Part shown: positions 1,598 to 25,504 of the stretch, piece by piece | Position numbering within the stretch: position 1 is the stretch's first letter | How the letters are laid out: every line of letters starts with the position of its first letter | Assembly: GCA_040754455.1 (NCBI GenBank) | Contig: JBFMCP010000002.1 | Location: 64,001 to 128,000 of the forward strand | Direction of reading: 5' to 3' | Origin: Nitrospirota bacterium | Lineage (GTDB): Bacteria; Nitrospirota; Thermodesulfovibrionia; Thermodesulfovibrionales; Dissulfurispiraceae | DNA: 64,000 nucleotides | Position numbers and translations under genes: made by a program | Notes under the pieces: generated by a model | Database searches by the model: none | The model's input: the letters and a program-made list of their open reading frames with translations, nothing else | Told to the model about the DNA's origin: nothing

Positions 1598-1608
1598 GGA
1601 GGGGAAGG

Positions 1609-3629: not shown

Positions 3630-3635
3630 TGAACA

Positions 3636-3851: not shown

Positions 3852-3861
3852 GGCTGAGACG

Positions 3862-3889
3862 AAAGGGGAGGGGCAACTCTCCCCTTTTT
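3862..3889 (+). terminator. Intrinsic terminator
   Basis: AAAGGGGAGGG-GCAA-CTCTCCCCTTT stem followed by T run. Confidence 0.7.
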
Positions 3890-3921
3890 AATTAACTCTT
3901 AACTTTTATGAAAGGGAAACA

Positions 3922-4988: not shown

Positions 4989-5488
4989 TGGATATTTACG
5001 TTCCCGATCGGCAGGAACTTAATTCCATAAAGAAGCCCGCAAAAGTGAAGGGCAACAGATGGGGCTTCTGCGGCATCGCAGCCATGAGCGCGGCGATCGG
5101 GATTGCCCCATTAAAGATATGCGACTCAATTCCGGACTGGCCCGGATATACGCCCTCGAGGATGCTTATCGAAACGCTGGCGAAGTTCGGTTATGACTGC
5201 AGGAGGATCCTGATCCCGAAACTGGAGCAGCAAATGTGGCCGTTATATCAAGCAGGGCATCCCTCCAAGATAGCGATCGGCCGTATTTACTGGAGCGAAG
5301 GGAAATACGCCGATTCTCACTGGATTTGTTTTAACTGGAGCATGGAGAGTCTGGACGATCCTTATCCGGGACTATATGACAACACCTTCTACGATGGCTG
5401 GTGGGATACCAGGCATTTGAAATTCTATATCGAGAACAGGACGGCGAAGCTCAAGAGTTTGTATTTCGTCATAAAGGGGGAGAAATAA
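4988..5488 (+). CDS. Papain-like (C39-like) cysteine peptidase domain protein
   Basis: CGIAAMS, SHW and YDN in Cys-His-Asp order. Confidence 0.5.
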   Translation: MDIYVPDRQELNSIKKPAKVKGNRWGFCGIAAMSAAIGIAPLKICDSIPDWPGYTPSRMLIETLAKFGYDCRRILIPKLEQQMWPLYQAGHPSKIAIGRIYWSEGKYADSHWICFNWSMESLDDPYPGLYDNTFYDGWWDTRHLKFYIENRTAKLKSLYFVIKGEK

Positions 5489-5490
5489 TT

Positions 5491-8736: not shown

Positions 8737-11700
8737 GTGTCTACTAACGACTTCGAAACAGTAAAATCATACCTCAACCTACTCAACGTCATCACCGGCG
8801 AGACCGGGCTCCAGATGAAGGGCGCTCATCTCGAGGAGTGCCCGTTTTGTCATCATCATGACTGTTTCAAGATTTACGATAACACGCAGACGTTCAAGTG
8901 TTTCTCTTGTGAGGGGCAGGGAGACGTTTTTGTATTCCTGCAGAAGTATCACAACATGGATGAGTTTGAATCGCTGAAGTATGCGGCCGGACTCGCTGGC
9001 GTGGATATAAAATCTCCTGAGCGCAAGGAGAAAAAGGAGAAGCCCGAGAGCGATCAGGAGAAGATGTATCGGCTCGCCTGGGAGCACTACCGGGCATCCA
9101 TCGAGGATCCGGCCAGCCCGGTGCGCAAATGGTTCATAGAGACGCGCGGCCACTCGGTCGACACGCTCAATAAGCTGAAGGTGGGAGCCTCCACCGGCAA
9201 GCTGCTGCCCTTCCTGAAGGAGCAGGGATTTGACGAGGAGGATGTCCTTAAATACGGCCTAGCGAAGAACAAAGACCACGAGGGAAAGGCGACTAAGCCC
9301 AGGGACTACTGGAAGCCGGGACTCGCTATCTTTCCGGTCTTCGATCACTCCGGGCGGATACTCTCTTTTACGGCCAAGGACCCTGAGAAGAAGATCCGGG
9401 CCACGCAGCTGGCCGGCAGCAAGAAGAAATGGCTACTCAACTATGCTGCACTCGGTAAAGGGTTTGAGCAGCTTCTCGTTGAAGGTGAGAATGATGAAGC
9501 AAGTCTGATAGATATTGGGTATGAGAACGTCTGCGGGACGGCCGGCGCGCCCGGGCAAGAGCAGATTACTCTCCTGAAGAACTTCCTCGCCGGCAAGACG
9601 GTATTTCTCTGGTATGACCAGGACAAGCAGGTCTTCCGGAAAGATCAGATCAAAGGCTCCGGAGGAGCCCACCATATTCGCTTCCTCTACGAGGGGCTGG
9701 CCGACACCGATGTGAAGGTGAAGATCATCGTGCATCCGCCGCTGCCGTCGGGCGAGGAGGCGAAGGATCCTGATGCCTACATCCAGGGACTCCTCCGGGC
9801 AGGCAAGTCACCGGCAGAGGTCCGCTCGATCGTCAAGGAGCTCAAGAATGAGGCCCTGGAGCCGCTGGAATGGGAAATACACCAGCTATCTCTCATTAAG
9901 GACGTGAAGGACCGTCTGGAGGCCTTCAAGCTGCGGAAACTGCCGCAGGCGATCAATGCGATTACCTCGGGAGCGGATCAGGAGGTATACATCCAGGAAG
10001 CGGCAAAAGCGATCGGCATCAAGATCGATAACGTAGAGGATCTGGTTAATAATGCCGTTGACCTCTATGAAAGCCTTACGGAGAGGTTCCGCGGTGAGCT
10101 GAAGAAGGCGGACCCTTACGACCTGGCGATGTTCATATTCAAGTGGCTGGGAAACGGTTCGGGAGCGAAGTTCTACAAGACCGACGAGGGGAAGGTGTAT
10201 CTCTTCTATCAGCGCACGAGCTACGAGATCGGGAACAATCTGGAGTTCAACACGCTGATGTTCCAACTGACGCATCTGGCGGCCGTGGAGAAGCCGGGAA
10301 GCACGGTGTGGTACTACCTGCAGGTGCTCGCCAACTCTCACGGAGAGCGCGTTGAGATGATGACGTGGCTGCATACGGACCGGGAGCGCGATGTTGTCTA
10401 CCTGCATCTGAATGCCTCTCATAATAAGATCATCCGATTAGCGCCCGGAGAAGAGCCTCAGCTAATCGATAACGGGACGAATGAGCACGGCATCTTGCTC
10501 ACCAAGAGTCCCCAAATGCGCCATTTCGAATACACACCAAACTCAAGCGAAGCCGAAGGCTTCGCGGCGCTCAGGACGCTTCTCATGGATACCACTCCGG
10601 CGGAAACGCCCATGAGGTTCTTTCTCGTGGCCTGGGTGACGTCTATCTTCATGATGAACTTCCAGAGTGACCGTGGCCTGCTGCAGATCATTGCAAACAG
10701 CGCGTGCGGAAAATCGAAAGTGGCCGAGAGGATCTCGCAGCTCATCTACAATGAAAATTATGTCGGCCGGGGAACGAATGCTGCAGAGACACGAGTGGCC
10801 ACAGTGAACCCGATCGTCTTCCAGGATAACCTTGAAAACCGGAACCTGAATCAGGGGACGGTCGACCTGCTCCTTCTCATGGCGAACAATACGCATAAGC
10901 CCAAGGCGAAAGGAGGCTCAGACACCGAGGTCCTCATGCAGCGGCTGTCTTCCCTGGGAGTGATCACTTCAATTGAAGCATTCCCCGGCAGGTACCCGGA
11001 GCTCGTGAACCGGACGTTCCCGCTGCTGCTGGATCCGGCGCGGAAGCAGAACGGCTACATGCACGATGAGGTGATGCGATCGATCAGCAAGCACCGGAAC
11101 CAGATACTCTCTTGTCTGCTCCGTATGATCAGTAAAGAAGTGTTGCCGAATCTCGAGGAGCGGAAGTACTGGAGCAAGCACCTGCAGACGAAGTATCCGG
11201 GGCACGCGAAAGAGAGAAACAACGAGCACCTCTGCACGATGATGGTTATCCTCGAGGCGATGCTGAAGAGGATCCCATACGCAAAGGGCAACGTCCCGAC
11301 GAAGACCCAGGCGATGGAGCTGCTCGATCACTGGATAAGGACCATGGAGGAACAGGAGCACGCGACGGCCATCACCTCGAACACTCTATTGAATCTGATG
11401 GACGGCCTGGCCAGGGAGGTACTCATTGCTATCAAGCATAAGGGGAATACTCTTCTTTATTCAGACAGCACGGAATTCGATCCTCCGTATCCGGACTTCA
11501 TAGGAGGGAAGGGGCGAGGTACTCGAGTAAAGATCCATGAGGATCCTATTTATCTGGAAACCTTCTATTTGACGGATGTTATGCAAGAGGAGGCGGGACC
11601 TGAGGACGAGGATGTAATGGAATCCTTTCAAAGGCTGGAGTTCATCATTACGGCTGCGGATCTCTATACGCTCTTCAACCGTTACTGCAAGAACCAGGGC

Positions 11701-11877
11701 ATCCGTAACCCCTTCGAGAACCCGACGTCCCTTGGCGCCCGGATCTCGAACGACAGGGCGATCCTTGAGAAAGGCGGCTGGACCTATATCCAGCGAAAGA
11801 AGGACGTGGCCCAGTACAAGAAGATCGCCGGTAACTGGCATTGGCGGTTCTCGAAGAAGGTAAAGGTGATAAACTAA
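8737..11877 (+). CDS. Phage DNA primase (CHC2 zinc finger + Toprim) with C-terminal P-loop/helicase-like domain
   Basis: CPFC..HDC...FKCFSC zinc finger; VEGENDE and YDQD Toprim motifs; KDPD; ANSACGKS Walker A-like. Confidence 0.88.
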   Translation: MSTNDFETVKSYLNLLNVITGETGLQMKGAHLEECPFCHHHDCFKIYDNTQTFKCFSCEGQGDVFVFLQKYHNMDEFESLKYAAGLAGVDIKSPERKEKKEKPESDQEKMYRLAWEHYRASIEDPASPVRKWFIETRGHSVDTLNKLKVGASTGKLLPFLKEQGFDEEDVLKYGLAKNKDHEGKATKPRDYWKPGLAIFPVFDHSGRILSFTAKDPEKKIRATQLAGSKKKWLLNYAALGKGFEQLLVEGENDEASLIDIGYENVCGTAGAPGQEQITLLKNFLAGKTVFLWYDQDKQVFRKDQIKGSGGAHHIRFLYEGLADTDVKVKIIVHPPLPSGEEAKDPDAYIQGLLRAGKSPAEVRSIVKELKNEALEPLEWEIHQLSLIKDVKDRLEAFKLRKLPQAINAITSGADQEVYIQEAAKAIGIKIDNVEDLVNNAVDLYESLTERFRGELKKADPYDLAMFIFKWLGNGSGAKFYKTDEGKVYLFYQRTSYEIGNNLEFNTLMFQLTHLAAVEKPGSTVWYYLQVLANSHGERVEMMTWLHTDRERDVVYLHLNASHNKIIRLAPGEEPQLIDNGTNEHGILLTKSPQMRHFEYTPNSSEAEGFAALRTLLMDTTPAETPMRFFLVAWVTSIFMMNFQSDRGLLQIIANSACGKSKVAERISQLIYNENYVGRGTNAAETRVATVNPIVFQDNLENRNLNQGTVDLLLLMANNTHKPKAKGGSDTEVLMQRLSSLGVITSIEAFPGRYPELVNRTFPLLLDPARKQNGYMHDEVMRSISKHRNQILSCLLRMISKEVLPNLEERKYWSKHLQTKYPGHAKERNNEHLCTMMVILEAMLKRIPYAKGNVPTKTQAMELLDHWIRTMEEQEHATAITSNTLLNLMDGLAREVLIAIKHKGNTLLYSDSTEFDPPYPDFIGGKGRGTRVKIHEDPIYLETFYLTDVMQEEAGPEDEDVMESFQRLEFIITAADLYTLFNRYCKNQGIRNPFENPTSLGARISNDRAILEKGGWTYIQRKKDVAQYKKIAGNWHWRFSKKVKVIN

Positions 11878-13509: not shown

Positions 13510-14523
13510 ATGTTTGAGAACTATCTAACAGGCTTCGCCGAGCAGGAGCGTGTTCTTCACGGGCTTGATGAAGCCTCAGTGTCGGCCTATCTTAAAAAAT
13601 TAAAAGAGTTCTTAGAATGGCTCGAAGGCAACGGGCATCCGGAGGAAATAGACATCCTCAAACAACGTGAGCTCATTGAGCAATATCTGCAGTGGTGCTT
13701 CCGTAGGGGGAATAAGAATACCACGCGAAACACCAAGCTCACGGCCATCACCAAATTTTATCGTTATCTCGTCTATATCAAGGCCCTTGATACTGATATC
13801 ACCGCCGACATCCCGCGACCGAAGACTCCACGTCGGTTTATGCAGGCGTACACCCGGGAGGACGTGCTCCGCCTTTTCCGGGCGATTCCGCTCCTTGACC
13901 CTAAGAAGGCAGAGAAAGCCCTCCGTGATGTCGTGATCATCATCCTGGGCGCTTTCTGCGGCTTCCGTATCGATGAGGCGCTTACCACCACGTTGAGCTC
14001 GATTGAGGACGATGGGAAATATATAAATATCCACGTTGAGGCAAAGTTCGGCAAGCATCGCTCCGTATATCTCTGGGCAGCGCCTTCTAACTTTGTGCGT
14101 TCTTATGTTGCGGTCCGCCTCGGGCATGGCGCGAAGAAAGATTCTCCGTTGCTGGTGTCATATAACAAGGGCGGAAAGCCCAAGGGTAATGCTCTCACGC
14201 ACGGAGCCATTGACCAGCTGATCAAGGGCCTGGCTGCGAATGCAGCCCTCCGGAAGCCGGAGAATCATTACCACATGTTCAGGGCAGGTCATATCAATGA
14301 CCTGCAGCGGATTAAAGGTTATACGCTCCCGGCGATCGCCAAGCGCGTCGGGCACGAGAATATAGAGACAACGTTTATTTACATCAAAGACCGGGACCGG
14401 ATTCACCATGAATACCCGAGCCTGGCCGCTTTCTGGAAAGATTTTGGTCCCCAATTGTGGGAGAAAGGAGATACTGATGCTAACGGCAGTAGTCATGTTG
14501 GAGGAGGAGAGATTGTCGAATAA
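13510..14523 (+). CDS. XerC/D-like tyrosine recombinase
   Basis: N-terminal SAM-like domain; GFRIDE (R), HMFR (HxxR), VGHENIETTFIY (H, Y). Confidence 0.9.
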   Translation: MFENYLTGFAEQERVLHGLDEASVSAYLKKLKEFLEWLEGNGHPEEIDILKQRELIEQYLQWCFRRGNKNTTRNTKLTAITKFYRYLVYIKALDTDITADIPRPKTPRRFMQAYTREDVLRLFRAIPLLDPKKAEKALRDVVIIILGAFCGFRIDEALTTTLSSIEDDGKYINIHVEAKFGKHRSVYLWAAPSNFVRSYVAVRLGHGAKKDSPLLVSYNKGGKPKGNALTHGAIDQLIKGLAANAALRKPENHYHMFRAGHINDLQRIKGYTLPAIAKRVGHENIETTFIYIKDRDRIHHEYPSLAAFWKDFGPQLWEKGDTDANGSSHVGGGEIVE

Positions 14524-15007
14524 CAAAAGAACGGCCAACTGGGAACGTCTCATACCGCTTTTTCAGTCCTATGTCGATACGTTCGGGGCCGAGCTGGGGG
14601 GAATGGTCATTGATTACATCGCCCGAATGATCGGCGGGTACCGGATCTCTTTCCCGGAAAAGCTGACGCCGATCACCAGGCATTCGGAGAGCTGGGTTAT
14701 CCTCGCCCAGTTTTATGATGTCCTATGCTCGGACCTCAGCAAGATCGAGATGCCGAAGGCACCTGAAGAATTCCGTAACGGCTCCAGGCTGTCGGGGAAC
14801 CGGATAGGCCAGGTCGTTATGAAGGAGATGTTTCGTAGACTCAAGGGCCATCGGATTTCATTTGTCAGGCTTGAAGAGATGCATCGCATCGAGCGTGACG
14901 AGAAGATCCGCAAAGAGCGGAAGGAGCATGGCACCAGCGTCACCGTCCTCGCCGAGCGCAGCGGCCTGGATGAAGTGACGATATGGAGAATATTGAGGGA
15001 GGAATAA
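14477..15007 (+). CDS. Mor/C-family transcription activator
   Basis: C-terminal ERDEKIRKE...LAERSGLDEVTIWRIL; IGGYRISFP; start may be 14513. Confidence 0.75.
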   Translation: MLTAVVMLEEERLSNNKRTANWERLIPLFQSYVDTFGAELGGMVIDYIARMIGGYRISFPEKLTPITRHSESWVILAQFYDVLCSDLSKIEMPKAPEEFRNGSRLSGNRIGQVVMKEMFRRLKGHRISFVRLEEMHRIERDEKIRKERKEHGTSVTVLAERSGLDEVTIWRILREE

Positions 15008-15010
15008 ATA

Positions 15011-15238
15011 GTGAAGGATTTATCTCATTTGAAATCTATTTTCAAATTTCTGCCAGGCGATAAGGTCGAGACGATTGTGGGGGATCTGGGCTTTGTTGAA
15101 ACCTGCGCTATAGAGGCTGAAGGTCGTGTGAAATATTACGTTGTTTGGAAGGGCGGCAACGGTAGATGGTTTTATGAGGATACCTTAACTGCGGGATGGA
15201 ACACGTCGAAGTCCGTGAGCGGTTTTAAAACAAAATAG
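15011..15238 (+). CDS. Hypothetical phage protein
   Basis: GGAGG RBS; FKFLPGDKV...WFYE. Confidence 0.55.
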   Translation: MKDLSHLKSIFKFLPGDKVETIVGDLGFVETCAIEAEGRVKYYVVWKGGNGRWFYEDTLTAGWNTSKSVSGFKTK

Positions 15239-15592
15239 GAGACCGAATATGAAGAACGCGAACTGCATCTTCAATGATCGGGGTGCCTGGTGCAAGAACG
15301 AGAAGGTAAAGCGGCGCTTGTTTGGCCTGGGGGCGAGAGTTTGTGCTGTGTTTAATGGGATGTCAGCACCAGCAAGAATATCCTCGACCAAAATCCCTTC
15401 CCCCAGTCCCGTCGCCGAGGGTGGAGCACCTGGGGATATAAGAGCGTAGAATGTTGGAGTGTTGGGGTATAATAATTCCATGAATTACGGCCTGGTCTAT
15501 AAGTCTAAGAGGAAGCGAAACAGTGGAGTTCTTTGGGCTCTGGCGTTGGCTGTGATAGTTATAGGGATTATTTCTCTCTGGGGTCTATGGAG

Positions 15593-15808
15593 ATGATGGT
15601 TAAATTGTTGCCATGCCCTTTTTGTGGCAACGAAGCGAAGCTGTACGAAGACTCGGAATATGCTAGCGAAGACCTCAGAAAATATTCTGTCTCCTGTACA
15701 GGATGCTCCTGCTCCTTGGGGGCCCTCGGCGATGACCATGACGACAATCCTGAATATTTGTTCTCTTCTAAGGAAGAGGCAATTAAGGCTTGGAATACTC
15801 GTGTATAA
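15593..15808 (+). CDS. Lar-family restriction alleviation protein
   Basis: LLPCPFCG...CTGC...EEAIKAWNTR. Confidence 0.8.
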   Translation: MMVKLLPCPFCGNEAKLYEDSEYASEDLRKYSVSCTGCSCSLGALGDDHDDNPEYLFSSKEEAIKAWNTRV

Positions 15809-15817
15809 ATTTAACCG

Positions 15818-15850
15818 CTGGCAAATCATGAAATAGAGAATTTGTATAAT
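15818..15850 (+). promoter_or_regulatory. Putative late promoter, copy 1
   Basis: CTGGCAAATCATGAAATA + 9 nt + TATAAT. Confidence 0.65.
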
Positions 15851-15915
15851 TTGTGAAGAGGTATTTGCGGAATGTCTTGACGGCGACCGCCAAAATCATC
15901 GACAAGGCTTCCGTC

Positions 15916-16052
15916 TTCGGTCAGTAGCAATTCACTCTTTTCCGGTGGGAACTGCTTAACCCGAAACCTGAAAGCTTGTTAGGATAGTGGTCAACTCTCT
16001 TTGGAGAGACCCTGGCCAACCCCGACTGGGCACTGGTTTCGGGTATTTTTTT
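15916..16052 (+). ncRNA. Structured cis-regulatory RNA leader, copy 1
   Basis: 10-bp stem ACCCGAAACC (15959-68) / GGTTTCGGGT (16035-44) then T run; inner stems; shares sequence blocks with 48191-48340. Confidence 0.6.
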
Positions 16053-16069
16053 GCCCGGAAAGGAGAACA

Positions 16070-16270
16070 ATGCACACAGACTGGGATATCAAGGACTGGA
16101 AGCGCCGTCTCGCCAAGCTGCTCAAAGAACACCCTGACATTGACGACCAGACCACCGGGCGTATCGAAATCAATCTTAACAGGGGCTCTATAACCAAGGC
16201 TTATAAGGTCGAAACCGAATCCCGTAACGGAGGGGCGAAAAGGATTATCACCATGACGGAATTGAAGTAA
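16070..16270 (+). CDS. Small leader-associated protein, copy 1 (66 aa; possibly DUF2292/YezD-like)
   Basis: AAGGAG RBS; DIKDWKRRLAKLL...PD...TGRIEINLNRGSIT; paralog at 48360. Confidence 0.7.
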   Translation: MHTDWDIKDWKRRLAKLLKEHPDIDDQTTGRIEINLNRGSITKAYKVETESRNGGAKRIITMTELK

Positions 16271-16314
16271 TCGCGGTCAGTTAGTAACTGCCGTCCTGGT
16301 GCGGCAGATCTATT

Positions 16315-16350
16315 AAACCCGGCAATGCGCTATGCGTTGGCCGGGTTTTT
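16315..16350 (+). terminator. Hairpin/terminator directly before the modification gene RBS
   Basis: AAACCCGGC...GCCGGGTTTTT. Confidence 0.6.
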
Positions 16351-16362
16351 CATTTGGAGATC

Positions 16363-17661
16363 ATGTCATTCATCGGATCGATTAACGACAGGCTTCGACA
16401 GTTTTTCTGGACCCACGCCGGCAGGCTCGACGGCCGGCGCTGCTATATCGGCTGCTCGGGCAATTTCACCATTGAGCAGATCATATCGCGCCGCTGCAGC
16501 AACGTAGAGATCTACAGCAATGACGTGTCTCTTTATTCAAGCGCCCTCGGCCATATGCTGGCCGGCAAGTCCTTTGACATGGAAATAACGAACCCCGAGC
16601 TCTCCTGGGCGAATGAATACATCCGGAGGGGCGCTGCAGAGGGAGTCGGCACGCTCCTGCTCTTGCTCGAAATGCTGAAGTACGAGAAGCGCAAGAGCGC
16701 CTTTGCCGAGCGCATGTGGCAGTCGTATCTGATCAATTTCGAGGGGCTGCTCGACAAGACCCTGCAGCGGATCCAGAAGGCGTCTGAGCATATTCGTATC
16801 AAAGAATACACCATGGTCGACGTGTTCGATTACTACCCACGCCCTGACGGCGTGAGCATCGGCTTCCTGCCGACCTATGTGGGCGGGTACGAGAAGCTTT
16901 TCGCCCGCCTCGAGGAGTCGGTGCAGTGGCAGAGCCCACGCTACGAGCTGCTTACCACAGAGCGCCGTGAGGCCAGCGTCCAGAAAATGCTTGACGGTGA
17001 TTACATCCTCTATGATGACCGTGAGCGCGATCTCCCCTGCATCGCCCGCGTGGATCTCTTTGGCCGCAAGACGGTCTACATTTACAGCAACCTCGATGTC
17101 CGCCAGGGCGTGTTCCGGAAAAAGATAAACGAGAAGGTCCCGCGCTACGAAATCCTCATGCCGGATGAAGAGATCGCTCATGATGCCGAGGTCAAGCTCC
17201 TGCAGGTGGACCTTCCGACGATCAACCACTACCGCAATATGTTCCTGAGCAAGAAGATACAGCCCGGCTCCGGGGATCCCTGCTTCCTTGCTTTTGCCGG
17301 CGACAAGGTGTTCGGCTTCCTGATCTTTCAGACCTATTCGAAAAAGGGCGGTCCGTCCGATGAGATCTATCTGCTATCAGATTTCGTAGTGCCGAGTACT
17401 CGGTATCGCCGACTTGCGAAACTGCTGCTTCTGGCCGTCAAGTGCAGAGAGGTCAAGCAGCTCCTCGATGAAAAGCAGATACGGGAATTCGGGAGCATCC
17501 TGACTACCGCTTTTACCGATAAACCGGTGAGCATGAAATACCGCGGCGTCTTCGAGCTCGCAAAGCGCGGCGAGGGCTTTCTGAATTACCGGGCCGAATT
17601 CGACAACACATCCCTGAAGGAGGTCATACAGCTATGGATGAAAAAATACGAGAAACAGTAG
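16363..17661 (+). CDS. Putative DNA-modification (anti-restriction) enzyme: divergent adenine MTase-like N-terminus + GNAT-like C-terminus
   Basis: YIGCSGNFT and YSNDVS SAM-binding-like motifs, FLPTY in the DPPY-like position; C-terminal GFLIF...YLLSDF...RRLAKLLL; GGAG RBS. Confidence 0.6.
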   Translation: MSFIGSINDRLRQFFWTHAGRLDGRRCYIGCSGNFTIEQIISRRCSNVEIYSNDVSLYSSALGHMLAGKSFDMEITNPELSWANEYIRRGAAEGVGTLLLLLEMLKYEKRKSAFAERMWQSYLINFEGLLDKTLQRIQKASEHIRIKEYTMVDVFDYYPRPDGVSIGFLPTYVGGYEKLFARLEESVQWQSPRYELLTTERREASVQKMLDGDYILYDDRERDLPCIARVDLFGRKTVYIYSNLDVRQGVFRKKINEKVPRYEILMPDEEIAHDAEVKLLQVDLPTINHYRNMFLSKKIQPGSGDPCFLAFAGDKVFGFLIFQTYSKKGGPSDEIYLLSDFVVPSTRYRRLAKLLLLAVKCREVKQLLDEKQIREFGSILTTAFTDKPVSMKYRGVFELAKRGEGFLNYRAEFDNTSLKEVIQLWMKKYEKQ

Positions 17662-18428
17662 ACCAGCTTAATTCATTCCTGGGCGATATGCCGTACAAGG
17701 TCGATATTGTGGATCCACGTGAGCTAACACTGCTCGAAAAGAACGCCCGATACATGACGCATGAAATGTTCCAAAACCTCGTGACCAACATCAAGAGAGA
17801 TGGTGGGCTGTCCTCCCTGCCACTGGTCTATTATGAAAAGGACGGCCGGAAGATCGTCCTGAGCGGTAATCACCGTGTCCAGGCGGCCGTCGCTGCAGAG
17901 GTCCCGTGGATCCTTATCCTCAGGATCGACAGGGAGCTCTCCCGGCAAGAGCAGGTTGCCATTCAGCTGTCGCATAACGCTATCGAGGGGAAGGATGATC
18001 CTGTTGTCCTGAAGGGCCTGTGGGGGGAGATCCTCGATATCGACCTGAAGCTTTACGCAGGCCTCGACAGCGAAACACTGAAGGAGCTTGAAAAGATGCA
18101 GTTCGCTACCATCTCAGAGGCAGCGCCCGATTTTAAGCAGATGGTCATGATGTTCCTTCCCGAGGAGCTGGAGGAATTAAAGCAGTTGATCGAGGGTATT
18201 GATCACTTCTTTTCCGGTGATGTGAACTACGTTGCCGCACGGGAGCACTATGAGCATGTGTTTAAAATGCTCGTCGAGATAAAGGAAAAGTTCAATATCG
18301 TGAACAACCCGACTGCCTTTATGAAGATGGTCGAAATGGCAAAGCTGTACATGGAAGGGTTGCCGCCGGCAGAGGTCAAAAAAGATGCCAAAGCCGCAGA
18401 CGCTACTTCAACAAAATCAAAAGCTTAG
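17634..18428 (+). CDS. ParB/Srx-like N-terminal domain protein
   Basis: KNARYM...NIKRDG...VLSGNHRVQAA...QLSHN; overlaps the modification gene. Confidence 0.8.
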   Translation: MDEKIRETVDQLNSFLGDMPYKVDIVDPRELTLLEKNARYMTHEMFQNLVTNIKRDGGLSSLPLVYYEKDGRKIVLSGNHRVQAAVAAEVPWILILRIDRELSRQEQVAIQLSHNAIEGKDDPVVLKGLWGEILDIDLKLYAGLDSETLKELEKMQFATISEAAPDFKQMVMMFLPEELEELKQLIEGIDHFFSGDVNYVAAREHYEHVFKMLVEIKEKFNIVNNPTAFMKMVEMAKLYMEGLPPAEVKKDAKAADATSTKSKA

Positions 18429-18786
18429 TTCCCCGCGTGTAAAGCCGTAAAGCAAGGAAATATTTTTTTGCATACAGATATACCTATGCTTTTCCACGCC
18501 TCACAAAATCAAAAACTTAGGATGATGTTTTCTCTTGCTTCGACACGGTATCGAGCCTCTGAATGCGCTACATTTTGGGTGCAATCACAGGCACAATATT
18601 CCCCGAGATCACGAAGCTTTTTTTTATCGGTGCGTAATTTTACGTAATCAATCGAAATCGTCTTTCTTTATCAGCGTACCTCTGCGTATCGCCCCGCTTC
18701 CCTGTGTATCCACATTGCCCCAGGTAAGGTACAAAGTTAGGATTAAATCAACATAACACATTGCACAGCGAAGGAGGGGAAAGGAT

Positions 18787-19035
18787 ATGCGATATGTGAC
18801 GGTGGGATTGACGGCAGAGCAAGCGCATTTTGTATCAGACATGCAGAGGCATTATGAGCGGATGGCGGGAGAGGCGATTCCGCTGCACCGCGCAATAGAG
18901 CGCATTATTGAATGCGCCATGCTGGAAAGAAAGGAGGTTAATGGAGAGGAAGAAAATTGGAAGGGCACGGCGGCCACCGTGCCCCACGTAAGCACCCCTA
19001 ACCCAAACACGAGAAAGGAGCTAACACTATGGTAG
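18787..19035 (+). CDS. Small protein, possibly ribbon-helix-helix regulator
   Basis: N-terminal strand YVTVGL then two helices; AAGGA RBS; TTGCCC-17 nt-TAGGAT upstream (18715-18743). Confidence 0.45.
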   Translation: MRYVTVGLTAEQAHFVSDMQRHYERMAGEAIPLHRAIERIIECAMLERKEVNGEEENWKGTAATVPHVSTPNPNTRKELTLW

Positions 19036-21383
19036 CAACGGCAGCAGTCGAAGTCAACGCAAAGAGGATCGCATCATTGAGGAAAGTAGCAGACGGAATG
19101 ACAAAGCAGATCGAGGAGAAGTTGAACTCGGCCACCAGCAAGCAGCGCCCCACCCGGCGGCGCGCAAAGATAGCCGACAGTCTGGAGCAGGAAGGCCGGA
19201 CCCTGCAAAAGGTCCAGCACGCGCTCAATGCGATCGCTGACGGCCTTGAGAGCGGCACGCTCCCCGAGAGCCTTGCGAAGCTCTCTAACCGGGTGCAAGT
19301 GGACGACCTCATCAGATTGAGCCGTCCATCTGATCGCCTGGAGGCCCTCGGCATCGATTTCGAGCGGGCCAAGGCCGATATCATGGAGATCATTAAAGAC
19401 GCTGTCCCGGTCGTCAGCCTGCAGGAAGCGAAGATCCGGAAGATGGAGCGCGACCTGATCGGCACCAAGATCCCCGGTTATTTCCCTACTCCCCGTGAGA
19501 TAGTTGAAGAGATGCTCCAGTCGGCGGATATCGCGCCCGGCATGAAGGTCCTGGAGCCGAGCGCCGGCAAGGGCAACATCGCGGATGTCATCAGAGAGCT
19601 TTATCCTGAGGTGGAGCTGTCGGTTGTCGAGCGCAATTGGACACTTTGCGAGATACTGAAAGAAAAAGAGCACAATCTTGTCGGTTATGATTTCTTGCTG
19701 CACGAGGGCAGGTATGACCGCATCATCATGAACCCGCCGTTCGAGAACGGGCAGGATATGGACCACGTGCGCCATGCCTATTCGCACCTGAATCCGGGCG
19801 GCATTGTAGTATCCATCGTATGCGAGGGCGCCTTTTGTCGGACCGATAAGAAGGCCTGCGATTTTAAAGACTGGATGACCGAAATCGGCGGTACATCCTT
19901 CAGTCTGCCGAGCGGATCCTTCAGCATGGGAGAGCGGTCCACGGGAGTCAATACAAGAATCGTCGTCCTCTACAAGGAAGAGTCGGCAGCGGAAGAAGCT
20001 GCGACCGAGACGGAAGAAGACATGGTGGCTTTTGGAGAAGGGTCTGAACAGCCGGCGGCTGAGGTCGTTCAAACTCCCGATGCGGAGCCGGAGCTAGCTA
20101 TCTGCCGGACATGCAAAGGCAGGGGAGAGATCGAGAATATCAAATGCGCGGACTGCAAAGGCACCGGATGGGCTGTCGTAGAAAAGGTCATTCACGAGGA
20201 CTGCAATGGACATGGCTGTGATGCCTGCCATGACGGTTGGATCGCAAGACAGGTGAATGCCGAGCCCAACGGCGTTCTTTCGCCGGACCAGACGCAGAAA
20301 GACCTGAACCTGAAGCATCCAGCAGGAGACCGAAAGCGCGGCACGCTGACCCTTATTCGCAATGAGTTCGAGGAATGTCTAAAGGCCGCTCTCGACATCG
20401 CCGAGCGGAGAAACACCATGCCGATTCTCTCGCATATCCACATCAAGGCTGAGGAGGGCGCCTGCCGCATCGAGGCCACCGATATTGAAAACTCATGGAG
20501 CAAGGTGATTGTCGCCAATCCGGTCTACGGCGCCGTCGATATGTGCGTCCCGCTCCATCTTCTCGCCAAAGAGGTCAGCGCGCTCCACGCAGACATCAAG
20601 ACCGTAGAGCTGTCGTTCAAGGGCAATACGGTAAAAGTCAACGGCAGGTGCGATATCTTCACTCTTCGCGGTGATGAATTCCCGGCCCTCAAAATTATCG
20701 AGGGCACCGAAGTTGCGATGAAGGGACTTCCGGCGAAGATCAAAAGAGTACTCGTAGCAGCAGGCGAGAGTGATACCCGGTATGTGCTCAACGGTGTCTA
20801 TATTGATTTGCAGAAAGGGCGCATCGTGGCGACCGACGGCCACCGGCTGCACATTGATGATATCGAGAAATCAGAGATGCCGAGTGTCATTCTTTCACGC
20901 AAGACAGCCGGGCTGATCGCCAAGCATGGCGCTGATACGCTCGTTTTCGGTGATGGGCATGTATCCTGCGCACTTGCCGGAGGTGTTCTGGTATCGAGGC
21001 TCCACGAAGGCACCTATCCGAACTACGAGAATGTAATCCCCAAAGAGCTCCCGATCAAGGCGACCTTCAGCGGGGCGGAGATGCTCAAGGTCCTTGAGGG
21101 AGCGGTCCCTATAGCGGCATCGAAGAGCAACGCGGTCAAGCTCTCGTTCAACGGGCAGATCGACGTGCATTCCACGAATCCCGATATTGGGCAATATCAC
21201 TGGTACGTGCCCTGCGAAAAAACAGGGGACGATATCTCTATAGCGATCAATGCACAGTATCTTATCGACTCCATCCGGTCATACACGACCAAGGAGAATG
21301 ATACTGTTATAATGGAGATCAACGAGCAGCTGACCCCGGTGCTCATCAACAGCAGGGCTGTCGTAATGCCCATGAGGTTATAG
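19029..21383 (+). CDS. Amino-DNA methyltransferase fused to DnaJ-type Zn finger and DNA polymerase III beta clamp (DnaN-like)
   Basis: VLEPSAGKG and IIMNPPF; CRTCKGRG/CADCKGTG; RNTMPILSH..EATDIE, TRYVLNGVY..VATDGHRL, SRLHEGTYPNYENVIP, terminal VVMPMRL. Confidence 0.9.
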   Translation: MVATAAVEVNAKRIASLRKVADGMTKQIEEKLNSATSKQRPTRRRAKIADSLEQEGRTLQKVQHALNAIADGLESGTLPESLAKLSNRVQVDDLIRLSRPSDRLEALGIDFERAKADIMEIIKDAVPVVSLQEAKIRKMERDLIGTKIPGYFPTPREIVEEMLQSADIAPGMKVLEPSAGKGNIADVIRELYPEVELSVVERNWTLCEILKEKEHNLVGYDFLLHEGRYDRIIMNPPFENGQDMDHVRHAYSHLNPGGIVVSIVCEGAFCRTDKKACDFKDWMTEIGGTSFSLPSGSFSMGERSTGVNTRIVVLYKEESAAEEAATETEEDMVAFGEGSEQPAAEVVQTPDAEPELAICRTCKGRGEIENIKCADCKGTGWAVVEKVIHEDCNGHGCDACHDGWIARQVNAEPNGVLSPDQTQKDLNLKHPAGDRKRGTLTLIRNEFEECLKAALDIAERRNTMPILSHIHIKAEEGACRIEATDIENSWSKVIVANPVYGAVDMCVPLHLLAKEVSALHADIKTVELSFKGNTVKVNGRCDIFTLRGDEFPALKIIEGTEVAMKGLPAKIKRVLVAAGESDTRYVLNGVYIDLQKGRIVATDGHRLHIDDIEKSEMPSVILSRKTAGLIAKHGADTLVFGDGHVSCALAGGVLVSRLHEGTYPNYENVIPKELPIKATFSGAEMLKVLEGAVPIAASKSNAVKLSFNGQIDVHSTNPDIGQYHWYVPCEKTGDDISIAINAQYLIDSIRSYTTKENDTVIMEINEQLTPVLINSRAVVMPMRL

Positions 21384-21384
21384 G

Positions 21385-21816
21385 ATGATCTATTCAATCG
21401 GCTATCAGAAAAGGAAGCTCTCCGAGATAGTCAGTGTGATGGAGGAAAAGGACATCGACCTGCTGGTCGATGTCCGCTCCGTCCCCTACTCGCGGAAGCC
21501 GGAGTTTAACCGCAACCGCCTGCAGGAGGCCCTCGGCTCCCGTTATGAGTGGATGGGCGAGGTCCTGGGCGGCAAAAAGGGGCCTGCAAAGGAGATCGGC
21601 ATCAAAAAACTGCTCTTCCTTCACGGCCAGGGCAGGCGCCTGCTCCTGATGTGCATGGAGCATCACCCCTGCGACTGCCACCGGCTCTATGATATCTCCC
21701 GGCGACTCGCAAAGAGGGGCGTTGAGGTAGTGCACCTTTTCGACGGCCATGAGCAGACGACCGACGAACTATCAGAGGAGGCATGCAATGAACGCAAAAA
21801 AGATAGAAATAGATAG
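21385..21816 (+). CDS. DUF488 family protein
   Basis: IYSIGY...LVDVRSVPYSRKPEFN...LMCME....CHR. Confidence 0.85.
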   Translation: MIYSIGYQKRKLSEIVSVMEEKDIDLLVDVRSVPYSRKPEFNRNRLQEALGSRYEWMGEVLGGKKGPAKEIGIKKLLFLHGQGRRLLLMCMEHHPCDCHRLYDISRRLAKRGVEVVHLFDGHEQTTDELSEEACNERKKDRNR

Positions 21817-22696
21817 TGAGGGCAAAGCAGCGACACATCTGCTCTTCCCCAATCCGGACCAGCCGCGGAAGATCTTCAAGCAAGGTCCTCTCGAGGAGCT
21901 GGCCCTCTCCATCCGGGAGAAGGGGCTTATCGAACCGATTGTCATCACCCCGTACGGCAAGATCATTGCCGGCGAGCGGAGATGGCGGGCGAGCATGATG
22001 GAGGGCACCATCCAGACCGAGCGCGGTCCGATACAGATAACTCCTGTGGAACGGGTGCCGGTGATCACCAAAAACGCTAGCGAACGGGAGATCGCCGAGC
22101 TCGCACTTCTGGAGAACTGGCAGCGCGAAGACCTCACCATTATGGAAGAAGCGATGGAGTTTAAGAAGCGGCTTGCTGAGGGGTGGACCAAAGAGGACCT
22201 TGCAAGGATCCTCGGCCTTAAACAGACCTGGCGCATCGATGAGCGCTTGAGCCTCCTGAACCTCACCCCTGAATACCAGCAGATGGTAGCCGAAGGGAAG
22301 ATCGGCAACTCCGAGGCCTTCGAGATGAGTCGTGTTACCCCTGCCAAGCAGGGTGTGGTGCTGAAAAAGATCGTTTCCGGGGAGCTGAATACCTACAACA
22401 AGCTCAGGGCCTTTGTGGACGGAATGATCGCACTGGAGAGCCAGGGCAACATCTTCGATCTCAATTCCCTTTCGGAGGAAGAGCAGTCGTCGATCAGGAG
22501 CTTCGATGGCATGCTCGCCGGCATTGAGCGGTTCATCGGCAAGTTCAGAGATGAGGAGCGGATCGCGCTTCTCAAAAAAGCAGGCTTCCGCGCGGACATC
22601 AAGTCCGAGCGCCTCGACCTCATCATCAAGGAGCTGCAGGGGATACGGAAAATTATCCTTGCCGGCAAGGGGATCAAAGACGCCATGGCCGCTTAA
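21788..22696 (+). CDS. ParB/Spo0J-family protein
   Basis: PNPDQPRKIF..LEELALSIREKGLIEPI..IIAGERRWRA..ALLENWQREDL. Confidence 0.9.
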   Translation: MNAKKIEIDSEGKAATHLLFPNPDQPRKIFKQGPLEELALSIREKGLIEPIVITPYGKIIAGERRWRASMMEGTIQTERGPIQITPVERVPVITKNASEREIAELALLENWQREDLTIMEEAMEFKKRLAEGWTKEDLARILGLKQTWRIDERLSLLNLTPEYQQMVAEGKIGNSEAFEMSRVTPAKQGVVLKKIVSGELNTYNKLRAFVDGMIALESQGNIFDLNSLSEEEQSSIRSFDGMLAGIERFIGKFRDEERIALLKKAGFRADIKSERLDLIIKELQGIRKIILAGKGIKDAMAA

Positions 22697-22730
22697 CTGT
22701 CAAATCATGAAATAGTTTTCTGCTATTAAT
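22697..22730 (+). promoter_or_regulatory. Putative late promoter, copy 2
   Basis: CTGTCAAATCATGAAATA + 9 nt + TATTAAT, upstream of terminase operon. Confidence 0.65.
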
Positions 22731-22763
22731 AGCCCAAAGGTTAACACCGGAGGGCTATTTAAT

Positions 22764-23669
22764 TTGGCAGACAACAAAGACGAAATTCTGGCGCAACTGA
22801 AGAAGAAACTCACGCTTATCAGGGTGAGCATCAGCAACGCCGTCAGACATCTCAACGAAGGCAGAGTCGTTCCTGCGAGCACGATCGACGATCTATATAC
22901 CCAGGAGACACAAATCCTCAAACAGATCGAAAGGCTCGAAAAGGAAGAGGATACCCCTCCACCTCCATCGGAATCCTCGGGCGAAGCCGGCGCCGAAGAG
23001 GAAGAGTACGGCATCCCGAAAGAGCTCCGCATTATGCGCCGTCCCTACACCATGACCGAAGAGGCGCGCCAGCAGCGGCAGAATGCGGCGAAGAGTCCCG
23101 CGAAAGCCGATGCCATGAAGGGGAACCGCAACGCCTGGAAGCACGGGCAGTATGCCGAGGGATTGGTGCGGAGCGTATTTCCTCCCTGCAAAACTACCTG
23201 TCGTCATTTTAAAAAATGTGAGCACGTTGCGAACGGCGAGACAGAGCCCGGCGAGATATGTCTTGACAATGCGCAGCTCATAAAGAATCTCCAGGCTGTT
23301 GAGAAAGCCATGAGAGACGGACAGCTTGGGGATTTGAAAGACCTTGCGGCTGTACAGATCGCCGGCGGGATAGAGGTTATCCAGCGATTGATTGCCGATA
23401 TCCTGACGGACGGAACGCTGGTAAAGTCGCTGATCTTCGGCAAGGATGGACAGCAGCTCGGTTACAAGGTTATGAATCACCCGTCGCTTTTGCCGCTGTG
23501 GAAAGGCATGGAGGTCCTGGGGATCACGCCCACAAACTTCATGATCACGCCGCAGATCGTGAAGAAGTTTGATACCGAAGAAAAGGTGGCTAATACTCTT
23601 GGCGCGGCAATGGGCCGCGCGGCGGCTGCTGCCCAGCGTGCGCGCGAGAAGAAGCCACAGCAGCAGTGA
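22764..23669 (+). CDS. Terminase small subunit (putative)
   Basis: GNRNAWKHG motif; directly upstream of large terminase. Confidence 0.65.
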   Translation: MADNKDEILAQLKKKLTLIRVSISNAVRHLNEGRVVPASTIDDLYTQETQILKQIERLEKEEDTPPPPSESSGEAGAEEEEYGIPKELRIMRRPYTMTEEARQQRQNAAKSPAKADAMKGNRNAWKHGQYAEGLVRSVFPPCKTTCRHFKKCEHVANGETEPGEICLDNAQLIKNLQAVEKAMRDGQLGDLKDLAAVQIAGGIEVIQRLIADILTDGTLVKSLIFGKDGQQLGYKVMNHPSLLPLWKGMEVLGITPTNFMITPQIVKKFDTEEKVANTLGAAMGRAAAAAQRAREKKPQQQ

Positions 23670-25504
23670 AGCCCTTCATTGATACGGTTGAGCCTGTAAC
23701 GATGGATGACCTCCGCAAGGCGATCCTTGTTCCCCGTGAAGATTTCGAGAAGTGGCTGGAGCTGCATAATTGGACTTACCACCAACTGGCCCGAAAAGAA
23801 TACCCCGAGCCCTACGAAGACCTGCAGCAGTTCCAGCTTGCCTGCTATTGCTCATCACCGCTCCTATGGATACCTGCTTTTTTAAGGGAGCCTGAAGACC
23901 CCGATCACCAGGACTCTTATACGCTTTGGGACTATCAGGAGGACTCTATTGCATATCCCGGCCACACGATACACAAGTGCGGCGCCGAGGTGGGCAAGAC
24001 CCGCGAGATCGTCGCGTACGCGCTTTATAAAGCCTTTACCGTGCAGAACGGCTCCGGGCTGATAGGCGCGCCGCAGCAGACGCACCTGGACGAAATCATC
24101 GAGGCGATGCTCGAACAGCTCGACTTCAACGAGGACCTGAAGCCTTCGCTTGTGGAGCACAAGAAACATCCGCATCACCGGTTCAGGTTCGATACCAGGT
24201 TCAAACTCTATTTCAGGCCGGCCGGACATGACGGCGAGGCATACAGAGGAATACACGTGCGGACATTCGCCATCAAGGATGAAGCGGCGAAACTGGATCA
24301 TAAAAAACAGTGGTCGGAGTTTTTCCGTGCGGTCAAGCCCGGTTGTGTGGTGAAGCTCTACTCGGTGCCCGACGGCCGGCGCGATACGGAATTCTACCGG
24401 TTGAGCAAACTTGCCGAGGGCGAGAAAGACACGGAGATCGAAGCGTTCAAAGAGGCATCGAACCATATTAAGGAGATCAAATTCCAGCTCTTTAAATGGC
24501 CGAAGATGTTGATGCCTTCGCCGTACTGGTCGCCTGAGAGAAAGAAGTTCTATATAGATCTTTACGGCGGAGAGGATTCGCCGGAGTATAAGCACAATGT
24601 CTTGGGTGAGGACGGGGATCCTGCCAACTCTGTTTTCCCATGGCAACAGTTCAGGTACTGCATTAAAGAGATCCCTGAGTACCGCGCGTTGAAGATCATG
24701 GTCGATTCAGCCAATGGAGAAGTGAGCGCCTATGGGTACCGATGCGAGTATGTGGCCGGAGACAGCGGGCCGGTCCCCAAGGCTGTTACCATCCTCGACA
24801 CGACTTACCGCCTGGCCGGCTTTTTCGATTATGTGGAGGGCGAGGAGTCCGAGTTCAGGAAGCTCATCAAGAGCTTTTTCGATGAGACACGCGAGGGCGC
24901 CAAGGAGGGTGGCGGCGACTTCGGCTATACCGGGGATCCCACGGAGCTGATTGTGCATAAGAGGATCGGCAAGAAGGACAGGTGGGTGGCCCGGCTCCAG
25001 CTGCGGCAAGTCACCTACGACCAGCAGTGCCAAGCGCTCGATGCGATCGACGATATCTTCGAACCGAAAGAGTCCCTTGGATGGGGGACCGACTTCGGCA
25101 ACGCCGGCTCCGCGGTTGCTCACGATCTGCAGGGGCTCCCACAGTATCGGGACAAAGACTATGACGACCGGCTTCGGGGATTCATGTTCGAGTCGACAAC
25201 GGACAATGTAGATGAAGAGGGGACCCCTATCATTGACGCCAAGACAGGGAAGCCGGCGAAGATCACGCTCAAAGAACTGGCGACCGATATCCTTGTAAAG
25301 AAGATGCAGCGCATGGAGCTGGAGTATCCGCCCGACCCTGACATCGTTGTCTCTTACACCGGGCATACCTGCACCTACGGCAGCAAGCACAGGATCTACT
25401 CGAAGAGTAACGACCATCTTATTGACGCAGATAGAGCAAGAGTGCTTGCAAAACTTTTTATGAATGAAACCGGCCGCGACGACGTGTTTGCAAGCGGAAA
25501 TTGA
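23666..25504 (+). CDS. Terminase large subunit
   Basis: LWDYQ, GAEVGKT Walker A, IKDEAA Walker B, GGDFG and NDHLIDA nuclease motifs. Confidence 0.88.
   Translation: MKPFIDTVEPVTMDDLRKAILVPREDFEKWLELHNWTYHQLARKEYPEPYEDLQQFQLACYCSSPLLWIPAFLREPEDPDHQDSYTLWDYQEDSIAYPGHTIHKCGAEVGKTREIVAYALYKAFTVQNGSGLIGAPQQTHLDEIIEAMLEQLDFNEDLKPSLVEHKKHPHHRFRFDTRFKLYFRPAGHDGEAYRGIHVRTFAIKDEAAKLDHKKQWSEFFRAVKPGCVVKLYSVPDGRRDTEFYRLSKLAEGEKDTEIEAFKEASNHIKEIKFQLFKWPKMLMPSPYWSPERKKFYIDLYGGEDSPEYKHNVLGEDGDPANSVFPWQQFRYCIKEIPEYRALKIMVDSANGEVSAYGYRCEYVAGDSGPVPKAVTILDTTYRLAGFFDYVEGEESEFRKLIKSFFDETREGAKEGGGDFGYTGDPTELIVHKRIGKKDRWVARLQLRQVTYDQQCQALDAIDDIFEPKESLGWGTDFGNAGSAVAHDLQGLPQYRDKDYDDRLRGFMFESTTDNVDEEGTPIIDAKTGKPAKITLKELATDILVKKMQRMELEYPPDPDIVVSYTGHTCTYGSKHRIYSKSNDHLIDADRARVLAKLFMNETGRDDVFASGN

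Follow-up and report, generated by a model that had tools for sequence, protein, structure and literature searches.

The window analysed here, a 64,000-nucleotide stretch (positions 64,001 to 128,000) of contig JBFMCP010000002.1 in the Nitrospirota bacterium assembly GCA_040754455.1, contains within a lambda-like prophage of about 56 kb an open reading frame (ORF), designated P0001, in which a putative DNA adenine methyltransferase is joined through a long tether to a complete beta sliding clamp (DnaN). The original prediction, made from the letters alone, had described one 784-amino-acid (aa) ORF with methyltransferase motifs, an acidic linker and a series of DnaN landmarks; each of these motifs was recovered. 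The layout of the gene was as follows.

19029..21383, + strand: whole ORF P0001, 784 aa, comprising methyltransferase, tether and beta clamp; ATG start, TAG stop at 21381-21383
19029..19463, + strand: N-terminal all-helical domain, aa 1-145; helices at residues 2-143 of an AlphaFold2 (AF2) model with a predicted local distance difference test score (pLDDT) of 94.6; Foldseek matches to HsdM
19464..19982, + strand: S-adenosylmethionine (SAM)-dependent amino-methyltransferase core, aa 146-318; Pfam MTS; FPTP, LEPSAGKG, E201, NPPF
19482-19493, 19551-19574 and 19731-19742: core motifs FPTP (aa 152-155), LEPSAGKG (aa 175-182) and NPPF (aa 235-238), respectively
19983..20102, + strand: acidic low-complexity linker, aa 319-358; 9 D/E and 0 K/R among the 30 residues 319-348
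20103..20234, + strand: Cys-rich DnaJ-like zinc-finger insert, aa 359-402; Cys at 359, 362, 373, 376, 392, 397 and 400
20235..20333, + strand: second linker, aa 403-435; holds a segment conserved with the homologue P0002; pLDDT <50
20334..21380, + strand: complete beta sliding clamp, aa 436-784; domains I (440-554), II (564-665) and III (668-776)

An AAGGAG Shine-Dalgarno sequence was present 7 to 8 nt before the ATG of P0001. The ATG overlapped the stop of the ORF before it (ATGGTAG), and the following gene began 1 nt past the TAG of P0001. This spacing on either side indicated that P0001 is one cistron of a tightly packed block.

As the original prediction had held, the clamp was of full length. 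The Pfam DnaN domains PF00712, PF02767 and PF02768 all matched above their gathering scores (residues 440-554, E 4e-10; 564-665, E 6e-15; and 668-776, E 9e-13, respectively), and the NCBIfam dnaN equivalog TIGR00663 scored 160.3 against a cut-off of 137.65, with residues 441-784 covering positions 4-367 of the 367 in the model. The clamp part also matched phrog_947, 'DNA polymerase processivity factor' (4e-48), beta clamps of the Protein Data Bank (PDB) down to 1.7e-28 (6deg) and the DnaN of the host (33% identity, E 4e-52), a 369-aa protein encoded beside dnaA on contig C9 of the 3.27-Mb, 92-contig host genome. The layout of P0001 was not that of a housekeeping dnaN, the gene being fused and prophage-borne and not beside dnaA. 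The landmarks RNTMPILS (461), ATDIE (483), ATDGHRL (601) and EGTYPNY (660) were followed by VVMPMRL (778-784), the pocket motif, at the C-terminal end of the protein.

Conservation was concentrated in the partner-binding pocket. Eighteen residues are listed, in the available text of PMC11139829, as subsites I and II of the clamp-binding motif (CBM) pocket of E. coli beta; at these positions P0001 was identical to E. coli beta in 16 of 18 cases and to the host DnaN in 17 of 18, while overall clamp identity was 88/339 (26%) and 116/340 (34%), respectively. A two-copy structure prediction produced a symmetric head-to-tail dimer in which residues 508-544 of domain I packed against residues 687-725 of domain III. 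The dimer score was 0.70, compared to 0.00 for the best of three controls, the contacts were in 100% agreement among three runs and the partner pLDDT was at least 89. Among proteins of known structure, the mark used for this prediction had been attained for 20 of 30 one-chain pairs, compared to 1 of 23 single chains. Four residues that mark the clade of this clamp (R540, Y723, W725 and P694) fell in the predicted ring interface. The original prediction had made ring formation a point to be checked, and the models predicted that the clamp part closes a canonical head-to-tail ring.

The N-terminal module was examined by profile searches and structural comparison. The Pfam MTS family matched the core with 26.1 bits, above the cut-off of 23, and Methyltransf_23 also matched, below its cut-off; PF02384 (N6_Mtase), which several relatives match weakly, did not match P0001, and no Pfam family was significant on residues 1-144 (none at E<0.009). 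An AF2 model of residues 1-335, built on an alignment of 63 sequences, had a pLDDT of 94.6 and consisted of the helical domain (1-145) and a Rossmann-type core. The top Foldseek matches were the type I HsdM subunits 3lkd (1.9e-9), 2okc, 7eew and 3ufb, together with M.TaqI. The M.TaqI structure (1aqj) superposed on the module with a root mean square deviation of 3.3 to 3.8 Å over 186 to 188 columns, and RNA methylases ranked lower in the Foldseek list. The helical domain always accompanied the core in close relatives and occupied the place held by the HsdM N-domain in type I enzymes. Catalytic motifs were intact: E176, G180, E201, N235, P236 and P237 were invariant in the alignment of 63 relatives, and FxTP, LEPxAGxG, E201, D221 and NPPF were invariant across seven fusions described below. 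The motif order X (FxTP), I, IV (NPPF) was that of the gamma-class N6-adenine type, which we take to be the M.TaqI/HsdM order. Sequence and model together suggested that the core is probably a gamma-class NPPF DNA adenine methylase.

No target-recognition domain was found in P0001; the core fold stopped about 80 residues past NPPF and was followed by the disordered linker, and Pfam and PHROGs scans of the genes of the block detected no HsdS-like specificity gene. As the tethered enzyme has no target-recognition domain, its sequence specificity would be low. The same methyltransferase module was found fused to ArdC (P0006), ParB (P0039, P0072, P0075 and P0080), LPD29, PBECR1 and DUF4942, and it was embedded in proteins of 1,400 to 5,194 aa; the phrogs matched by the methyltransferase part had profiles of 772 to 3,925 positions. 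In two viral loci (L039:5062-6606 and L031:5053-6588), a methyltransferase adjoining a clamp carried a DUF4942 N-terminal domain (2.5e-46 in L039), and in L031 a primase-like gene lay between the methylase and the clamp. A further protein, P0255 (575 aa), joined the module to MutS domain I, a mismatch-binding domain (PF01624, 7.4e-37), and may represent another tie of this methylase module to replication or repair machinery. Source names attached to relatives of the module included 'predicted RNA methylase' and 'phospholipid N-methyltransferase'.

The tether between enzyme and clamp comprised about 110 to 115 low-confidence residues. In a full-length model, the predicted template modelling score (pTM) was 0.52 and residues 326-434 had a pLDDT of <50, while the clamp part had a pLDDT of about 95; these values suggested that the tether is flexible and holds enzyme and clamp in no fixed geometry. 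The DnaJ-like CxxCxGxG repeats of the original prediction stood in part. The insert had two perfect repeats, at C359 and C373, plus a variant third Cys pair (C392/C397/C400), but not four full CxxCxGxG repeats, and it scored 17.7 bits against a PF00684 cut-off of 32.7, so that it was not recognized as a DnaJ-type zinc finger. The anti-TRAP family scored 16.5 on this insert, which was missing from the closest homologue, P0002. The linker was otherwise divergent between P0001 and P0002, except for a pre-clamp segment, PNG[VI]LSPD.TQ..L..K.PAGD (aa 418-435, window 20280-20333), kept in both. This segment loosely resembles a clamp-binding motif (Q..L.L), in a region of low model confidence. Docking of the linker peptide (QKDLNL in P0001 and QEELQM in P0002) into the pocket was considered and was not supported, as position 2 is not aliphatic and the pLDDT is <50.

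A stop or indel in the linker had been named by the original prediction as grounds for doubting the fusion. Support was assessed on assembled contigs of four runs from two studies, not on raw reads. Contigs of X1 and X2, either of which is possibly the source of the window DNA, covered 18900-21500 without a gap or a difference; the pieces obtained from X4 and X5, neither of them flagged as source, covered the linker (19971-20209, 20197-21228 and 19973-20308) with 0 differences. No stop or indel was therefore present in the contigs of the four runs. Homologues provided stronger evidence than the contigs for a real fusion. P0002 (715 aa), from another source, was 64% identical over its whole length and had the same architecture without the Cys-rich insert. 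The agreement of four runs and the architecture shared by independent homologues indicated that the fusion was not an artefact.

Among the matches listed, a methyltransferase was placed N-terminal to a DnaN clamp in seven clusters (P0001, P0002, P0003, P0136, P0137, P0208 and P0241), so that six clusters beyond P0001 shared the architecture and the homologues were not always two genes. These came from a word-indexed search and from an exhaustive search in which 150 of 31,029 matches were listed; 12 of the latter, chosen by length and match position, were scanned with Pfam, and the others were judged only by length and position. The contigs encoding the six other clusters measured 4 to 16 kb. 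In P0003, a clamp of 50% identity was preceded by a different methyltransferase (30% identity, E 4e-14). P0208 paired a methyltransferase of 42% identity with a clamp of only 22%, below the 33% of the host DnaN. The helical N-domain was absent from P0136 and P0137. P0241 (626 aa), whose cluster has a second member of equal length, stopped inside clamp domain II and was counted as a fusion despite this incomplete or divergent clamp. In the word-indexed search, fusions made up 3 of 85 matches. No gene spanned both parts in any of 345 matching records of a phage collection, and in 60 genomes related to the host only the own DnaN of each was present and a fusion in none. A search with the clamp part among proteins of 1373 to 3920 aa gave no match, which is weak evidence. 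Metagenome contigs scanned with P0001 yielded three loci, all with the methyltransferase only. A genome-contig scan with the fusion alignment, in which the pattern came from the NPPF motif only and 6 of 64 parts of the collection were covered, returned a fusion in 0 of 80 kept loci. In the cultured Tunturiibacter phage Tunturi_4, the clamp (gp79) was followed 96 nt on by a separate methyltransferase (gp78) with a 29%-identical core. Clamp and methyltransferase also adjoined each other as separate genes in 3 of 80 IMG/VR clamp loci and in 1 of 80 genome loci, an adjacency counted in favour of the mechanism proposed below.

The history of the fusion was investigated with a 36-row clamp tree, built by a quick method with Shimodaira-Hasegawa-like approximate likelihood ratio test (SH-aLRT) support only. 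Its rows comprised 6 fusions, 25 clamp-only relatives, 3 methyltransferase-adjacent clamps and 2 cellular DnaN. A 70-row alignment had been set aside because its clamp-only rows were at 17 to 28% identity, which suggested misalignment, and alignment A6 was used instead. The clamp of P0001 fell in a separate phage and metagenome beta-clamp clade (SH-aLRT 97), with relatives that included P0004, P0005, P0009, P0086-P0088 and P0138-P0232. Five changes of the fusion state were needed on the tree, at least three of which were forced by well-supported branches. Clustering of the fusions did not exceed that of shuffled labels (in 150 of 500 shuffles the score was as low), and P0208, on a long branch, was of unsure placement. 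These sequence comparisons indicated that the methyltransferase-clamp fusion arose more than once, and its repeated origin suggested that the physical link has been selected.

Most members of this clade (25 of 31) were clamp-only, and all of these had N-terminal extensions of 12 to 125 residues (median, 74). The extensions were mostly K/R-rich, histone-tail-like sequences rich in Lys, Ala and Pro, with Cys clusters instead in P0088 and P0109. The extra domain was N-terminal in all six aligned full fusions, and 24 of 31 clade members ended exactly at the pocket motif. N-terminal cargo and an end at the pocket motif would be expected if the C-terminal face of the clamp must stay free. Two other DnaN clamps, P0114 (714 aa) and P0121 (923 aa), had large C-terminal additions (DUF2924 in P0114), a polarity opposite to that of the fusions.

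The setting of P0001 in the prophage was determined by annotation of the surrounding genes.

Left prophage end, just upstream of the window: integrase, cI-like repressor and CII-like protein
5401-6450, + strand: ParB-helix-turn-helix (HTH) protein
8737-11877: primase-helicase, 1,046 aa
13510-14523, + strand: second tyrosine recombinase, mid-prophage, after the primase-helicase
16354..17661, + strand: Dam-like plus GNAT-like fusion, 435 aa (PF22555, 2.8e-56; PF22559, 3.5e-41; phrog_7858)
17634..18428, + strand: ParB-like protein, 264 aa (phrog_7405, 3.8e-66, and weaker ParB-like phrogs)
Between the ParB-like protein and P0001: 82-aa ORF
21385..21816, + strand: DUF488 protein (PF04343, 1.6e-14)
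21749..22696, + strand: ParB N-terminal domain plus HTH, 315 aa (PF02195, 1.9e-18; PF17762, 3e-12; TIGR00180 above cut-off)
Between this ParB-HTH protein and the terminase: 301-aa protein
23666..25504, + strand: terminase large subunit (phrog_2, 3.9e-14), which opens the packaging and virion genes

Downstream of the terminase were a tail tube protein, a tape measure protein and a diversity-generating retroelement, with host genes from about 49.6 kb. P0001 was thus placed in a tightly packed DNA-modification block next to the terminase and apart from the replication module. Among the prophage ORFs scanned (49 + 13 + 24), no DNA polymerase or clamp loader was found, the primase-helicase being the only replication gene of this kind. 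At least one type I restriction-modification locus is present in the host genome. The sequence of the 435-aa Dam-like/GNAT-like neighbour made it a possible second DNA-modification enzyme of the block; PF22555 is a phage DNA adenine methylase-like domain 1, and this protein may combine a base-flipping module with an acyltransferase, an arrangement that recalls Mom-type adenine hypermodification. Three ParB-family proteins were present in the one prophage, two of them flanking P0001, with the DUF488 protein between P0001 and the third. Of the two tyrosine recombinases, the first (L004:13156-14373, - strand) neighboured the cI-like repressor at the left end of the prophage; the second may serve in dimer resolution, or else two elements may lie in tandem in this region. 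The retroelement at the tail end of the prophage comprised an Mtd-like target (PF21916 plus an FGE-sulfatase fold) and a reverse transcriptase (PF00078) at 46411-47496 and 48547-49581, + strand.

The combination of domains suggested a mechanism in which two copies of P0001 would join via their C-terminal DnaN parts into a beta ring, each subunit bearing a putative N6-adenine methyltransferase on a flexible tether of about 110 residues. The clamp loader of the host, binding the conserved pocket, would place this ring at primer-template junctions of replicating phage DNA; the host enzyme would be expected to do the loading because no phage loader or polymerase was found and a host-type pocket has been kept. 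Once loaded, the ring would slide and the enzymes would methylate adenines along the new duplex with low specificity and at a high local concentration, and packaged progeny genomes would be protected from restriction in the next host. The original prediction had already proposed processive or replication-coupled methylation as a protection of phage DNA, and we infer it from the domain content and the settings of the methyltransferase family. The invariant catalytic motifs, the type I restriction-modification locus of the host and the occurrence of this methyltransferase family in anti-restriction settings favoured this mechanism. Overall, we lean towards a ring loaded by the host loader whose tethered, low-specificity adenine methylase marks replicating phage DNA against restriction, at slightly better than even chances. 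A more ambitious version, which we hold only tentatively and which would have to overcome considerable doubt, is that P0001 serves as a working replicative clamp for phage DNA. Each loaded ring, one per Okazaki fragment, would then bring two methylases, so that methylation would be built into replication. In this version, mobile elements would have arrived at least three times, by covalent fusion, at a prokaryotic equivalent of DNMT1-PCNA, and methylases without a recognition domain would gain their reach from a joined DNA-tracking module, be it a DnaN ring, a ParB clamp or an SNF2 motor.

Several results weighed against replication-coupled marking by a clamp-borne methylase. The association was rare from either side, and most members of both families work apart: only 3 of 60 clamp relatives of 431 to 1372 aa carried a methyltransferase, a methyltransferase of the same family lay within 6 kb of a clamp in 3 of 80 IMG/VR loci (L039, with a 43-nt gap, L031 and L061), and a clamp lay within 8 kb in 1 of 80 methyltransferase genome loci (L135). 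The Pfam families to which the core was assigned are general small-methyltransferase ones with RNA and protein methylases among their members, PF02384 was silent, and a PDB sequence search with the methyltransferase module returned nothing below E 0.1. The full-length model (pTM 0.52) fixed no geometry between the two parts, and the ring prediction may echo the model's memory of solved beta-clamp dimers. A pocket able to bind host partners fits a hijacking role equally well. Finally, a scan of 14400-24000 detected 4 promoter-like and 7 terminator-like sites, where 6.1 and 9.0, respectively, were expected; these counts did not exceed those of shuffled sequences, and no site on the + strand was useful.

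Alternatively, P0001 could be chiefly a phage replicative clamp that recruits or biases host Pol III, with the methyltransferase as a passenger that replaced the basic N-terminal tail. This explanation overlaps with marking by a loaded ring and differs in which part is under primary selection; the nearest relatives of P0001 are stand-alone phage clamps (the 25 clamp-only members among 31 in the clade), the phrog_947 match (4e-48) and the conserved pocket are consistent with it, and a primase-helicase was present while a polymerase was not found. We nevertheless considered it rather unlikely, as the gene lies outside the replication module (primase at 8737-11877) in the DNA-modification block by the terminase, the host already provides DnaN and the repeated independent fusion of a methyltransferase argues that the link itself was selected. 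Retention of three domains and of a ring interface, with the clade-specific R540, Y723 and W725, similarly made it improbable that P0001 is a hub hijacker or decoy, because neither feature is needed by a protein whose pocket sequesters the clamp loader, Hda, MutS/MutL or translesion polymerases or poisons replication. Such a role, in which the methyltransferase would be an unrelated second weapon after the manner of polyvalent proteins, could draw on the 17/18 pocket identity to host DnaN and on the frequency of this methyltransferase module in multi-weapon proteins.

The position of the gene directly upstream of the terminase and head genes would suit a virion-delivered early effector like DarB of P1, acting on the entering genome and not on replicating DNA, and the module is typical of injected polyvalent proteins in the available text of PMC5512222. 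A closed ring, however, requires a loader and a primer-template junction, the Pfam scan detected no head-targeting or MuF-like domain and no giant protein with this clamp was found among proteins of 1373 to 3920 aa, the last point being weak; we gave this explanation a slim chance, a little below that of a decoy. It is more improbable still that the methyltransferase acts on RNA or on a protein, such as a clamp-bound host protein, instead of DNA. The matches to MTS and Methyltransf_23 as the only Pfam families, the RNA methylase and phospholipid N-methyltransferase names of relatives and the presence of TrmN and rRNA methylases in the Foldseek list could be read in this way, but the top folds were HsdM and M.TaqI, the FxTP...NPPF set matches gamma-class DNA adenine methylases and all fusion partners seen (ParB, ArdC, MutS domain I and the clamp) act on DNA. 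An assembly or sequencing artefact joining two genes has a negligible probability: no point in its support was found, the four runs from two studies were identical across the linker, and six clusters from other sources, among them P0002 (64% identity), share the architecture. Marking of phage DNA by a loaded, methylase-bearing ring therefore remained the explanation that we prefer, and P0001 probably belongs among the counter-restriction methylases of mobile elements, with an architecture that is rare yet has recurred.

The general view is that DNA methylases of bacteria and phages locate their sites unaided. Full-text literature searches returned no publication describing a bacterial-type beta clamp with a methyltransferase either fused or bound to it. 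If the preferred mechanism is true, a natural covalent methylase-clamp would offer a testable case of replication-coupled, possibly sequence-blind methylation as counter-defence, and it would indicate that a beta clamp can bear a large enzyme at its N terminus and deliver it as cargo. A rule may be suggested whereby mobile-element methylases without a recognition domain borrow a DNA-tracking partner. A clamp-delivered, non-specific N6-methyladenine (m6A) writer that marks replicated DNA is a possible tool. The phage clamp clade with basic N-terminal tails is itself uncharacterised.

Compared to known systems, the closest to the C-terminal part is DnaN itself (E. coli beta, PDB 1MMI/2POL; TIGR00663), with which P0001 shares three domains, a predicted head-to-tail dimer, 16 of 18 pocket residues and the C-terminal MPMRL; it differs in being phage encoded, in having 439 extra N-terminal residues that include an enzyme and in its own interface residues Y723 and W725. 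To our knowledge, the only well-known methylase-clamp coupling is that of eukaryotic DNMT1 and PCNA. DNMT1 is a maintenance methylase that binds PCNA via a PCNA-binding region, so that new DNA is methylated behind the fork. Its recruitment to the PCNA sliding clamp is described in the available text of PMC4575159. Both systems couple a DNA methyltransferase to a replication clamp; in P0001 the link is covalent, the clamp is of the bacterial beta type and the enzyme would modify adenine N6, not C5. Furthermore, DNMT1-PCNA serves epigenetic inheritance, while the likely purpose of P0001 is restriction escape.

Other mobile elements join methyltransferases to DNA-tracking modules. Phage and prophage ParB-methyltransferase fusions, including some of the Methyltransf_23 type, are reported in the available part of PMC12704722 and resemble P0001 in that a phage methyltransferase is joined to a module able to clamp and slide on DNA. 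The ParB of those fusions is a clamp gated by CTP and self-loading at specific sites, whereas DnaN needs the loader of the replisome, which would tie the P0001 enzyme to replication. The DarB-type 'dyad' of polyvalent proteins, LPD36-adenine methylase-SNF2 helicase, has been proposed to act in anti-restriction (Iyer et al. 2017, PMC5512222, as far as its available text goes). It shares with P0001 an adenine methylase without a recognition domain, a preceding helical domain and a DNA-moving module at the C terminus; the moving module of DarB is an ATP-driven SNF2 translocase and that of P0001 a passive ring. The original prediction had offered a polyvalent anti-defence protein as its second possibility, and this was borne out only as far as the methyltransferase relatives, which it fits. 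Proteins of that class unite several unrelated effector domains in a single chain and are encoded near virion or transfer genes of phages and conjugative elements. P0001 has two functional modules and a putative Zn finger and lies upstream of the terminase, but the words 'clamp' and 'DnaN' have 0 mentions in the available main text of the defining paper (PMC5512222).

Links between adenine methylation and replication have precedents as well. M.EcoGIX and M.BceJIII are replication-associated, single-strand adenine methylases of the beta class with a DPPY motif (Fomenkov et al. 2020, PMC7736820); in the available text, the authors suspected the sliding clamp as an intermediary, and the enzyme was artificially fused to Pol I. 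In common with the enzyme proposed for P0001, they are orphan adenine methylases carried by mobile elements, have degenerate specificity and a tie to a replication enzyme, and have a suggested role in anti-restriction. Membership of P0001 in this family was considered and rejected, since those enzymes are beta-class DPPY proteins and P0001 has NPPF downstream of motif I, in the gamma order. The ydcA gene of the leading region of F-type plasmids encodes a core 36% identical to residues 152-314 (E 3e-16). It was present in no fewer than 5000 plasmid records, of which 3872 were conjugative, and its neighbours include ssb, psiA and an antirestriction gene. Unlike P0001, its product is a bare core of about 187 aa, without the helical N-domain and without a clamp. 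Finally, phages T4 (gp45) and Mu (MuC) couple late transcription to replication via the clamp, according to the available text of PMC12867686, and in these phages, as proposed for P0001, loaded clamps are read as a mark of replicated DNA. The T4 and Mu transcription factors bind the clamp by short motifs, whereas in P0001 the enzyme is part of the clamp polypeptide itself.

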